A stretch of DNA of 64,000 nt from Escherichia coli (lineage in GTDB: Bacteria > Pseudomonadota > Gammaproteobacteria > Enterobacterales > Enterobacteriaceae). Shown one piece after another: positions 29,762 to 33,123 of the stretch. The first letter of the stretch is position 1; every line of letters starts with the position of its first letter. The notes beneath the pieces are model-generated. The model was given only the letters and a program-made list of their open reading frames with translations, was not told the origin of the DNA and ran no database searches. A program made the translations under genes and the position numbers. The DNA lies in the NCBI RefSeq assembly GCF_050920415.1, contig NZ_CP169309.1. The stretch is one strand, 5' to 3'.

Positions 29762-30580
29762 GTGAAACGACTACAAGCATTTAAATTCCAGTTAAGACCA
29801 GGTGGTCAACAGGAGCGTGAAATGAGGCGCTTCGCAGGCGCATGTCGTTTCGTTTTCAATCGTGCTCTGGCGCTTCAGAATGAGAATCATGAGGCCGGTA
29901 ATAAATACATCCCTTACGGGAAAATGGCTTCCTGGTTGGTTGAGTGGAAAAACGCCACTGAAACGCAATGGCTTAAAGATTCGCCCTCACAGCCATTGCA
30001 ACAGTCACTGAAAGACCTTGAGCGGGCTTACAAAAACTTCTTCCAGAAGCGGGCTGCTTTTCCCCGATTCAAAAAGCGTGGACAGAATGATGCATTCCAC
30101 TACTCGCAGGGCGTTAAGCTCGATCAGGAAAACAGCCGTATTTTTCTGCCGAAACTGGGCTGGATGCGCTACCGGAATAGCCGTCAGGTCACGGGTGTTG
30201 TGAAAAATGTCACTGTCAGCCAGCCGGGGCGCAATGTCCGGGCAAAATCAGGTTTAAACCGTTCGATACTGGATCAGGGCTGGTATGAAATGCGCCGTCA
30301 GCTTGAGTACAAGCAGCTCTGGCGTGGCGGTCAGGTGCTTGCTGTTCCGCCAGCGTACACAAGCCAGCGTTGCGCGTGCTGTGGTCATACAGCGAAAGAA
30401 AATCGCCTGTCACAAAGTAAATTCAGATGCCAGGTATGTGGATATACAGCGAACGCCGATGTAAATGGCGCTCGTAACATTTTAGCGGCGGGGCACGCCG
30501 TTCTTGCCTGTGGAGAGATGGTGCAGTCAGGCCGCTCGTTGAAGCAGGAACCCACCGAAATGATTCAGGCGACAGCCTGA
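29762..30580 (+). CDS. tnpB: TnpB-like protein, short (272 aa), apparently lacking the central RuvC-I/II region
   Basis: N-terminus [13 protein letters not shown]...FPRFKKRG...[10 protein letters not shown]-terminal zinc finger CACCGH...CQVCGY and [10 protein letters not shown]; no GIDLG-type motif seen. Confidence 0.7.
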
Positions 30581-30620
30581 ACGTAGCAGGGATCCACGTC
30601 CTTCAGGGCGTGGAGGATGT

Positions 30621-32446
30621 GTGCGCCCAGCATGGGCGCGATCTTGGAGGTGAAAGTCCTCCCGCGAGCTGACCACAGCGAGCGAAAGGAAGTGCAACTG
30701 CGTGAGGGCGACCGGGCGTGGGGAGGAAGCACGGAATGAACCCGTGAGCCGATGAACAAGAATCGGATATGAGGCGCGATGGAGCAAGGCGAGCAGGCAC
30801 ATCACTGCGAAGCTTTCGTGGTCAAGTCGAAGTCGCGTAGATCCGGCGGTTGTGCGGGGAAGGATCGCGTTCTTACCTGGGGAGATCTCGCCTCATGCCT
30901 GAAAGGGCAACGTCGTAAGACGGAGCGAGAAGTCAGCAGAGGCCGTAGTAGTCAGGACTCCGACGAAGGGCCGAACGAGAAGGAAAGCCAGAAGATATGA
31001 CTCCTGACAGGACATTGCGTCAGAAGCCGGGGAAGCCCGGGCGCATCGTGGGCAGCGAGGGTGAAGCCCGCGCGGTCTCGTCGCGTGACGAAGCACTGTC
31101 GGCGAGTCATGACCCGGAAGGCTTGGGGCGAGCGGACCTGCTTCAACAGGTGCTCTCGCGCGAGAACATGGTCGAGGCGTGGAAACGCGTCAAGGCCAAC
31201 AAGGGAAGTGCAGGTGCTGATGGATTGACCATCGAGCAGACTGTTGAACACCTCAAGACTCGCTGGCCATACATTCGGGAAGCGCTTCTCAACGGGACAT
31301 ATCGGCCTCAGCCTGTGCGTCGCGTGGAGATTCCGAAACCGACTGGTGGCACTCGGGAATTGGGCATTCCGACAGTTACTGATAGGCTCATTCAGCAAGC
31401 GTTGCTACAAGTCCTGCAACCGTTGATCGACCCGACATTCTCGGAGTTCAGCTATGGCTTCCGGCCGGGCCGGAGCGCGCACGACGCAGTGCTACAAGCA
31501 CAGCGGTACGCGCAAGATGGATTCCGGGTGGTAGTTGATGTTGACCTTGAGAAATTCTTTGATCGGGTCAACCACGACATTCTGATGGACCGACTTGCCA
31601 GGCGAATCGCCGACAAAGCCGTACTACGGCTGATTCGGCGCTACCTGCAAGCTGGGATCATGGCGGATGGTGTGGTAATGGCGCGTGACGAGGGGACGCC
31701 GCAAGGCGGTCCACTGTCTCCGCTGTTGGCCAATGTGTTGTTGGACGAAGTAGATCGGGCGCTGCAACAGCGCGGTCATCGCTTCGCCCGGTACGCCGAC
31801 GACTGCAACGTGTACGTTCGCAGTCAGAAGGCGGGAGAACGAGTACTGCGTTGGATGCGCAAGATGTATGAGCAGTTGCATCTGCGCGTGAACGAGAAGA
31901 AAACCGAAGTGGGTCCGGTATTCGGGCGTAAGTTTCTCGGCTATTGCCTTCGGCGCTGGTCAGGAAACACCGTCAAGATTGCTGTTGCTCCGAAGGCGCT
32001 CGACACGTTCAAACGGCGTATCCGGCTCATCACCAGACGCGTTGGAGGCCAGGGCATAACCCAGATTGCCGAACAGATGCGGATATACCTTCGAGGCTGG
32101 AAGTCCTACTTCCGGCTGGCACAAACCCCGAAGATATTCAAAGATCTGGATTCGTGGATACGTCACCGACTCCGGGCTATCCAGCTGAAGCACTGGCGCA
32201 CGGGAACGACTGTCTATAATCGCCTCCGCAGTCTCGGGGCTACCCATGAGCAGGCCGCACTTATGGCAGGAGGCGCGGGGCACTGGTGGAGACACAGCGA
32301 AGCTGGGCTGAACCGTATACTTACAGTCGACTACTTTGATGCTTTAGGTTTACCTCGACTCGCATAACCTCAACTTCTCGAACCGCCCGGTGCGGACCCG
32401 CATGCCGGGTGGTGTGGCAGGGGCGCCGCCTTGTGCTGCCCCCTAT
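30621..32446 (+). mobile_element. group II intron (bacterial class C-like) with internal RT/maturase ORF
   Basis: Begins GTGCG; GC-rich structured 5' region; IEP ORF in the domain IV position; downstream 30-nt hairpin with 2-nt bulge (about 32383..32412) as domain V; ends ...CCCTAT. Confidence 0.7.
30997..32367 (+). CDS. group II intron-encoded reverse transcriptase/maturase, no endonuclease domain evident
   Basis: 456 aa; RT motifs (RRVEIPKPTGGTRELGIP, FRPGRSAHDA, YADDCNVYV) and C-terminal maturase-like region. Confidence 0.9.
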   Translation: MTPDRTLRQKPGKPGRIVGSEGEARAVSSRDEALSASHDPEGLGRADLLQQVLSRENMVEAWKRVKANKGSAGADGLTIEQTVEHLKTRWPYIREALLNGTYRPQPVRRVEIPKPTGGTRELGIPTVTDRLIQQALLQVLQPLIDPTFSEFSYGFRPGRSAHDAVLQAQRYAQDGFRVVVDVDLEKFFDRVNHDILMDRLARRIADKAVLRLIRRYLQAGIMADGVVMARDEGTPQGGPLSPLLANVLLDEVDRALQQRGHRFARYADDCNVYVRSQKAGERVLRWMRKMYEQLHLRVNEKKTEVGPVFGRKFLGYCLRRWSGNTVKIAVAPKALDTFKRRIRLITRRVGGQGITQIAEQMRIYLRGWKSYFRLAQTPKIFKDLDSWIRHRLRAIQLKHWRTGTTVYNRLRSLGATHEQAALMAGGAGHWWRHSEAGLNRILTVDYFDALGLPRLA

Positions 32447-32451
32447 GCCGA

Positions 32452-33123
32452 TCAATAAACAGGTTGAATTAACTCCGCTCCCTGGTTTTTGACATTACCT
32501 ACCGCGCGCGACACAGGGTGCCAGGTGAACTGGTTTGCTGGCACACAGCCACTGGTAGCGATTTCTGAGGCTTCTTTACCGCTAATCTCTTGCCGCATCC
32601 ATTCCCGCGCAGTTTCTGGCGACAGTACCAGCGGGCGGCGGTCATGAATATCTACCAGGCCCTGGTCTGCTGCTGCAGTGACAATTAAAAATCCTTCGGC
32701 CTCGTCACCGCGCTCAAACGGTGTGCTACCTATCGCGGCCATAAAAACAGGTTGTCCATCAGCGCGATAGATAAAATAAGGCTGTTTTTTGTCGCCTTCT
32801 TTTTTCCACTCAAACCAGCCATCGGCAAAACAGATTGCCCGACCATGTTGCCAGAGCGGTTTAAACATACGACTGGTTGCCGCAGTTTCTACGCGGGCGT
32901 TAATCAGCGGCGGTTTATCCCACCATCCGGGAGCATATCCCCAGAAAACCGGATCCAGATGAAGGTGTTCATCACGTTCACTGAGCAGAAGAACTTTGGT
33001 TCCCGGCGCGACGTTGTATCTGCCAATGGGTTCGGGATCGTAGGGAATATCGCGTTCAATATCTTCCGCGAGAAGCGCAAGGTAATCTTCACGCGTTTGG
33101 GATTGGGCAAAGCGTCCACACAT
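32452..33123 (-). CDS. yedK: SOS-response-associated peptidase (SRAP) YedK
   Basis: 223 aa starting MCGRFAQS (Cys2). Confidence 0.9.
   Translation of the reverse strand: MCGRFAQSQTREDYLALLAEDIERDIPYDPEPIGRYNVAPGTKVLLLSERDEHLHLDPVFWGYAPGWWDKPPLINARVETAATSRMFKPLWQHGRAICFADGWFEWKKEGDKKQPYFIYRADGQPVFMAAIGSTPFERGDEAEGFLIVTAAADQGLVDIHDRRPLVLSPETAREWMRQEISGKEASEIATSGCVPANQFTWHPVSRAVGNVKNQGAELIQPVY

Follow-up and report, generated by a model that had tools for sequence, protein, structure and literature searches.

The window, by which we mean the whole stretch of 64,000 nt of Escherichia coli DNA analysed here, carries fliE, emrE, ybcL, ybcM, an IS200/IS605-family element, a group II intron, yedK, yedF and yedE in this order. 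The open reading frame (ORF) under study starts with a GTG codon and occupies positions 29762..30580 on the plus strand. It is the tnpB gene, or insQ, of an IS609 copy located beside yedK and has undergone an in-frame deletion of 390 bp, encoding 272 instead of 402 amino acids. Between positions 29200 and 30700, the window is 100% identical to strain MFDS1022581, in which RefSeq labels the same ORF "RNA-guided endonuclease InsQ/TnpB family protein". Further upstream, the gene ybcL (27142..27579), encoding a Raf kinase inhibitor-like protein, is frameshifted with an extra G at position 27167 in comparison with strains N96 and 13C1079T, and it is listed as a pseudogene in the RefSeq annotation of an identical genome.

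The IS609 copy at yedK

The left end of the element (29266..29322, plus strand) begins directly after the target TTAT (29262..29265) and contains the hairpin CCCCGTCCTTCAGGGTGGGG at 29282..29301. It is followed by tnpA on the minus strand (29323..29754), an intact gene for a Y1 (HUH) transposase of 143 amino acids that was identified by its ORF, by the Pfam domain Y1_Tnp in an identical product and by its IS200/IS605 annotation. The tnpA of one allele is named "IS200/IS605-like element IS609 family transposase" in RefSeq. Only seven bases separate tnpA from the tnpB ORF on the opposite strand. Downstream of tnpB, the first part of the right end (30581..30620, plus strand) is identical to the right ends of IS609 copies at yedK and ydcO, includes the hairpin TCCACGTCCTTCAGGGCGTGGA at 30593..30614 and stops at the T of the terminal TCAA. 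The last three nucleotides of the right end, CAA, are located beyond the intron at 32453..32455 (plus strand), as revealed by comparison with right ends devoid of the intron. Both hairpins have the core CGTCCTTCAGGG in common, which occurs in the window only at positions 29285 and 30597.

IS609 copies at yedK and ydcO terminate with ...GGATGTCAA (also given as ...TCCACGTCCTTCAGGGCGTGGAGGATGTCAA). The empty site of K-12, AATCTCCAGGCTTAT^CAAACAGG, is equivalent to the left plus the right flank of the insertion, with TTAT as target and without duplication. The copy in the window exhibits the properties of IS609, namely a Y1 TnpA, subterminal hairpins, no terminal inverted repeats and an insertion 3' of a short, non-duplicated target.

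The adjacent gene yedK (32452..33123, minus strand) encodes a SRAP peptidase, and its TGA stop codon is the complement of the TCA at the end of the element. IS609 has inserted into the yedK stop codon; YedK is extended by one residue (Cys or Tyr), and a new TGA is provided by the IS end, an arrangement also present in a second sequence (L024, 1150..1260). In the window (sites 29262..29265 and 32452..32456), the T of this stop codon is contributed by the last base of the intron.

Other alleles at the locus harbor a nonsense mutation in codon 96 of tnpA, insertions of IS1 or IS3-family elements in tnpA, or a tnpA that has lost its stop codon, and yet another allele is characterized by a 100-bp deletion comprising the 3' end of tnpB and the right end. 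In many strains, tnpB at this position is intact and encodes 402 aa while tnpA is broken (L009..L012, L028), which is the opposite of the window with its intact tnpA and deleted tnpB. When the closest complete genome was inspected for full-length copies elsewhere, a check proposed in the initial annotation, none was detected. This genome carries IS609 at one place only, and hence no full-length InsQ would be available in trans.

A comparison of the guide scaffold with Rfam yielded exclusively sub-threshold matches to RAGATH-18 (29.5 bits), HgcC (22.3 bits) and sot0042 (17.1 bits). They overlap the 3' end of tnpB and the right-end hairpin (30507..30550 in the window; 4254..4437 in sequence L002). 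HgcC and sot RNAs are known to overlap the 3' ends of tnpB genes in archaea. We regard the matches as weak hints that may represent faint echoes of a guide-RNA scaffold. A literature search on IS609 in combination with TnpB retrieved nothing relevant.

The group II intron in the right end

The group II intron (30621..32452, plus strand) has a length of 1832 nt, reads GTGCG...GAT and is inserted at T|CAA within the IS609 right end. It encodes a reverse transcriptase/maturase (30997..32367, plus strand; TIGR04416, 420 bits) and matches the Rfam models group-II-D1D4-3 (103.6 bits) and D1D4-1. Its boundaries were set with the help of alleles lacking the intron. The insertion is located 6 nt after the right-end hairpin, and the IS boundary follows 3 nt further. 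The same T|CAA point is occupied in another IS609 copy (L025, ~3530..3640) and after a solitary right-end-like hairpin on a plasmid (L026, ~2990..3515), which together with the window amounts to three independent contexts. We also considered 113 copies of introns from other bacteria that share the first 22 nt. Almost all of them reside a few nucleotides after a strong hairpin, and several follow IS605-like ...GGAGGATGT hairpins.

Class C (IIC) introns are described as occupying sites 3' of terminators or of other inverted repeats (PMC1702495). The intron of the window shares this placement immediately after a hairpin; the hairpin used here, however, is the right end of an IS200/IS605 element and not a terminator. 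We consider the intron to be class-C-like, an assignment that is based on the insertion site, with generic Rfam group II domains and TIGR04416 as the only matches. A search of the literature on group II introns for a link to right ends of IS609 or IS605 gave no result. About 1400 complete E. coli genomes contain, at one chromosomal position, a 3' fragment of 225 nt that stems from a related intron and corresponds to 32228..32452 (92-93% identity); the full intron is found in only two.

It had been asked initially whether the region following the tnpB stop codon still matches a right-end guide-RNA scaffold. The stretch 30581..30620 is unchanged right-end sequence, but it ends 3 nt before the end of the IS, and the primary transcript continues into the intron and not into a guide flank. 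The intron splits the hairpin and the putative guide-RNA scaffold of the right end from both the terminal CAA and the flank that would act as guide, and it represents a second lesion of the copy in the window.

The 390-bp deletion and the lost parts of InsQ

Strain N96 possesses a 402-aa insQ at the same locus with the same neighbours. In an alignment with this full-length allele, the tnpB of the window shows a single gap of exactly 390 nt, equal to 130 codons, and is otherwise 99.7% identical with 3 substitutions. The 9-bp direct repeat GTCAGCCAG is present twice in the full gene (nt 454-462 and 844-852), its two copies lying 390 nt apart. The only remaining copy (30215..30223, plus strand; codons V152-S153-Q154) constitutes the deletion junction, and the deleted span can be written as codons 155-284 or, equivalently, as codons 152-281. 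The initial annotation had proposed an in-frame internal deletion of roughly 130 codons near codon 160, and thus came close to both the exact size and the position at codon 152-155. Replication slippage and microhomology-mediated illegitimate recombination classically leave such a trace, in which the sequence between two short direct repeats is lost together with one of the copies. The geometry of the junction suggests that the loss of 390 bp arose by one of these two processes acting between the GTCAGCCAG repeats. Since 390 is divisible by three, the frame was not disrupted. An assembly artefact was also considered and rejected, since the junction is seen in 30 complete genomes and in many draft assemblies.

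In comparison with IS609 elements encoding the 402-aa InsQ/TnpB, the retained parts of the gene are 95-100% identical at the nucleotide level, and the element displays the same divergent order of tnpA and tnpB, the hairpins of the left and the right end, and the terminal TCAA. In contrast, the gene in the window lacks codons 155-284 and hence the RuvC-I Asp and the RuvC-II Glu, and the right end of the element is broken by the group II intron.

With respect to family membership, the 272-aa protein scores 224 bits against the NCBIfam model guided_TnpB, whose cut-off is 100. This match consists of two stretches, the first of which places residues 7-157 on profile positions 1-172 of 389, whereas the full-length allele is matched in a single stretch covering positions 1-388. 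A Pfam search of the 272-aa product identified HTH_OrfB_IS605 (residues 1-48, E 2e-14) and Cas12f1-like_TNB (residues 174-240, E 3e-24), and no OrfB_IS605/RuvC domain (PF01385). Full-length relatives contain PF01385 in addition to the two other domains. The product is homologous to the TnpB family, but lacks the central OrfB_IS605/RuvC domain with its RNase H fold and a complete RuvC D-E-D triad.

Full-length InsQ could be aligned with ISDra2 TnpB (8BF8, 8EXA, 8H1J) over residues 3-372 with an E value of 2.5e-52. In this alignment, the InsQ residues D183 (GLDAG), E267 (VIEDL) and D363 (NADVNG) correspond to D191, E278 and D361 of ISDra2 TnpB, which form its catalytic centre (PMC10097598). The motifs GLDAG (RuvC-I D183) and VIEDL (RuvC-II E267) were not found in the 272-aa protein, and both are located within the deleted segment. 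The region 30371..30460 (plus strand) still encodes the zinc finger C204/C207...C223/C226 of the TNB domain and the RuvC-III residue D233 (D363 of the full-length protein; codon 30458..30460). In a family alignment of 51 sequences, C204, C207, C223 and C226 are invariant, D233 is near-invariant, and the RuvC-II Glu is kept in at least 90%. The alignment to ISDra2 TnpB and the TnpB profile searches thus confirm what had been noticed from the ORF in the first place, i.e. the absence of the RuvC-I/RuvC-II core together with the preservation of the N-terminal region, the zinc finger and the RuvC-III motif.

The structure of ISDra2 TnpB comprises the domains WED (residues 1-12 and 117-176), REC (13-116), RuvC (185-326 and 360-375) and TNB (327-359) (PMC10097598). 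Counted through the alignment, the deleted part is equivalent to residues ~162-289 of ISDra2 TnpB and takes away the last strands of WED (162-176) as well as approximately three quarters of the first RuvC segment (185-289), and with it the larger part of the RuvC domain and its RNase H core. The contacts of ISDra2 TnpB with its guide (omega) RNA include Q227, R231, R232, R238 and K263 (PMC10097598), and the equivalents of these five residues fall within the deleted span. An AlphaFold model of the 272-aa protein, built on 50 diverse relatives, is limited to the WED/REC lobe, a long helix, the zinc ribbon and a terminal helix and is devoid of the five-stranded RNase H sheet. No more than the N-terminal ~150-160 residues of the model superpose on WED and REC of ISDra2 TnpB, with an rmsd of 1.9-2.4 A. 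The pLDDT of 91 (pTM 0.65) stems from the alignment of full-length relatives and is uninformative on the stability of the deleted protein, and the model served only to show which elements are left.

Because two of the three catalytic residues, those aligning with D191 and E278 of ISDra2 TnpB, are gone, we can safely infer that the 272-aa product would be unable to cleave DNA, in line with the nuclease-dead state assumed initially. It is also reasonable to expect that normal guide-RNA binding would be lost. Given the predicted inability to cleave DNA and the absence of the RNA-contacting part of RuvC, the product is most likely non-functional, and the ORF would be a pseudogene with the outward appearance of a gene.

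Distribution, origin and fate of the short allele

The frequency of the short allele was determined with a junction probe of 45 nt across the deletion that cannot seed on full-length copies. It detected the allele in 30 of 5426 complete E. coli genomes (0.55%), at one place each. IS609 resides at yedK in approximately 1090 complete genomes, which is about a fifth of all complete E. coli genomes. This number is based on a full-length probe consisting of the 3' half of tnpB, the right end and yedK, which was covered to at least 80% (the threshold applied) in 1059 complete genomes, and on the corresponding short-allele probe, which was covered in 1092. The short allele accounts for ~3% of the complete genomes with IS609 at yedK. 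A search for the junction in thousands of IS609 copies at other loci remained negative. In a wider collection of assemblies, the common short protein was present in 1356 blocks and the variant of the window on 85 contigs, and every sampled contig encoding one of the two commonest short variants represented the yedK locus. An open frame was seen in each of the seven short alleles that were examined. The junction counts and the restriction to one locus indicate that the allele is real, lineage-restricted and young. Its persistence and expansion within one or more successful lineages nevertheless count against its interpretation as a pseudogene.

Of the 30 junction carriers, 29 are devoid of the intron and have a flanking haplotype in common, with identical EmrE, YbcM and YedK proteins; the remaining carrier is of the window type. 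On the left side of the junction (26249 to 30180), the window is nearly the same as N96, and 48 sites separate it from the common short haplotype. On the right side, it equals the common short haplotype through the end of the IS, including site 30323 at which most full-length alleles differ. About 55 sites from 30323 onward distinguish the lineage of the window from genomes of the N96 type. The N96-like left flank, set against the 29 carriers of the common haplotype, means that the deletion sits on two backgrounds. We compared its origin by three-way and nine-way SNP maps, and the switch of haplotypes is compatible with recombination or with recurrence of the deletion. The switch at the junction would most simply be explained by a single origin and subsequent homologous recombination.

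It is conceivable, if rather unlikely, that a slippage hot spot gave rise to the identical deletion of 390 bp on more than one occasion. This would leave the main explanation in place and modify it with regard to the origin of the allele, not to its function. Perfect 9-bp repeats would favor such a recurrence, and the two backgrounds with their 48 differing sites to the left of the junction are in agreement with it. However, the identity with the common short haplotype to the right, including site 30323, is more simply accounted for by one origin and recombination, and thousands of IS609 copies at other loci never yielded the junction. Transfer by recombination and recurrence could both underlie the two flanking haplotypes, and either would also fit an allele under selection. 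A codon comparison of 12 alleles revealed slightly more non-synonymous than synonymous changes in tnpB. Two non-synonymous changes and one synonymous change are private to the common short alleles (13C type), with one additional non-synonymous change in a single strain, numbers that are too low for a dN/dS estimate.

The initial annotation had further raised the possibility that the short protein is retained for an RNA-binding or regulatory role. In its broadest form, this explanation holds that a nuclease-dead derivative similar to TldR proteins acts as a trans-dominant inhibitor of IS609 TnpB, as a regulator binding the TAM or DNA, or as an RNA-binding protein. The preserved frame, the intact zinc finger and the intact N-terminal WED/REC lobe are compatible with this idea, as is the finding that considerably more than a thousand public assemblies contain the allele and that it is associated with two haplotypes. 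The N-terminal lobe, which superposes on ISDra2 TnpB at 1.9 A, is moreover predicted with high confidence and might fold on its own. On the other hand, a frame is preserved by chance in one deletion out of three, the allele is confined to 0.55% of the complete genomes and ~3% of the occupied loci, and it shares 99.7% identity with a full-length allele. In addition, the missing RuvC segment comprises the omega-RNA contacts of ISDra2 TnpB and the surface that binds the pseudoknot, the presence of tnpA and of both IS ends provides no sign of domestication, the guide region is cut off by the intron in the window, and the closest genome is without a full-length InsQ. A retained function of this kind is therefore very unlikely in our view, and the initial suggestion is not upheld. 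It is likewise very improbable that the intact WED/REC lobe, a helix and the zinc finger form a stable mini-TnpB that binds TTAT or guide RNA and either restrains IS609 TnpB in a trans-dominant manner or serves as a small regulator binding DNA, positive selection and recombination having spread it to two haplotypes.

TldRs form conserved clades that have acquired point mutations and/or C-terminal truncations while the overall fold and the RNA-binding interface are kept, and they are domesticated, associated with fliC or oppF, and equipped with a guide against a host target (bioRxiv 10.1101/2023.11.30.569447). The loss of RuvC catalytic residues, two of three in the protein of the window, is common to both. 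In contrast to TldRs, however, an internal deletion of 130 amino acids runs through the fold and the RNA interface of the protein studied here. Its gene is a rare allele within a recognisable IS with tnpA, left end and right end, and not a member of a conserved, transposon-free clade. The would-be guide is the ordinary right flank or, in the window, intron sequence, and no target in a host promoter is apparent.

A natural TnpB subfamily in which 272 amino acids would be the regular length can be dismissed almost with certainty: four short proteins align colinearly with the query in one stretch (P0212, 228 aa; P0221, 243 aa; P0259, 295 aa; P0264, 263 aa), but their deletion boundaries all differ and one of them has a scrambled C-terminus, the close relatives are 402 aa long, the distant ones mostly have ~400 aa and are split at the junction (~152), and a full-length allele is known at the very same locus. 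Among the best 120 hits in clusters of 90% identity, nearly all have 402 aa, and the 272-aa cluster has 150 members compared with 21,309 and 2,768 in the large full-length clusters. The best 150 representatives of 50% clusters are mostly about 360-480 aa long and match the query in two stretches with a break at ~150-155; the four colinear proteins are among them, and one of the four keeps the RuvC-II motif. These four proteins stem from unrelated TnpB lineages with 41-48% identity and carry internal deletions through the RuvC region. They are independent decay products and do not constitute a family. Separate lineages with their own boundaries imply that internally deleted tnpB remnants with an open frame are a seemingly recurring form of decay.

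Taken together, the ORF is very probably a pseudogene generated by a slippage-type deletion, a decayed tnpB (insQ) of the known element IS609. The allele is rare and recent and probably dead, and it does not represent a new kind of protein. For genome annotation, it is of relevance that pipelines call the 272-aa ORF an RNA-guided endonuclease despite two missing catalytic residues; an open frame and a family HMM score above the cut-off are thus no proof of an active nuclease. The intron may merit a study of its own, given that a hairpin-seeking intron here uses the right-end hairpin of IS200/IS605 elements, on which TnpA also relies, lands inside the TnpA cleavage motif and uncouples the scaffold from the guide. 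With regard to the biology of these elements, the locus at yedK provides a further example of IS decay, in which probable slippage between short repeats was followed by the invasion of the remnant by another mobile element.
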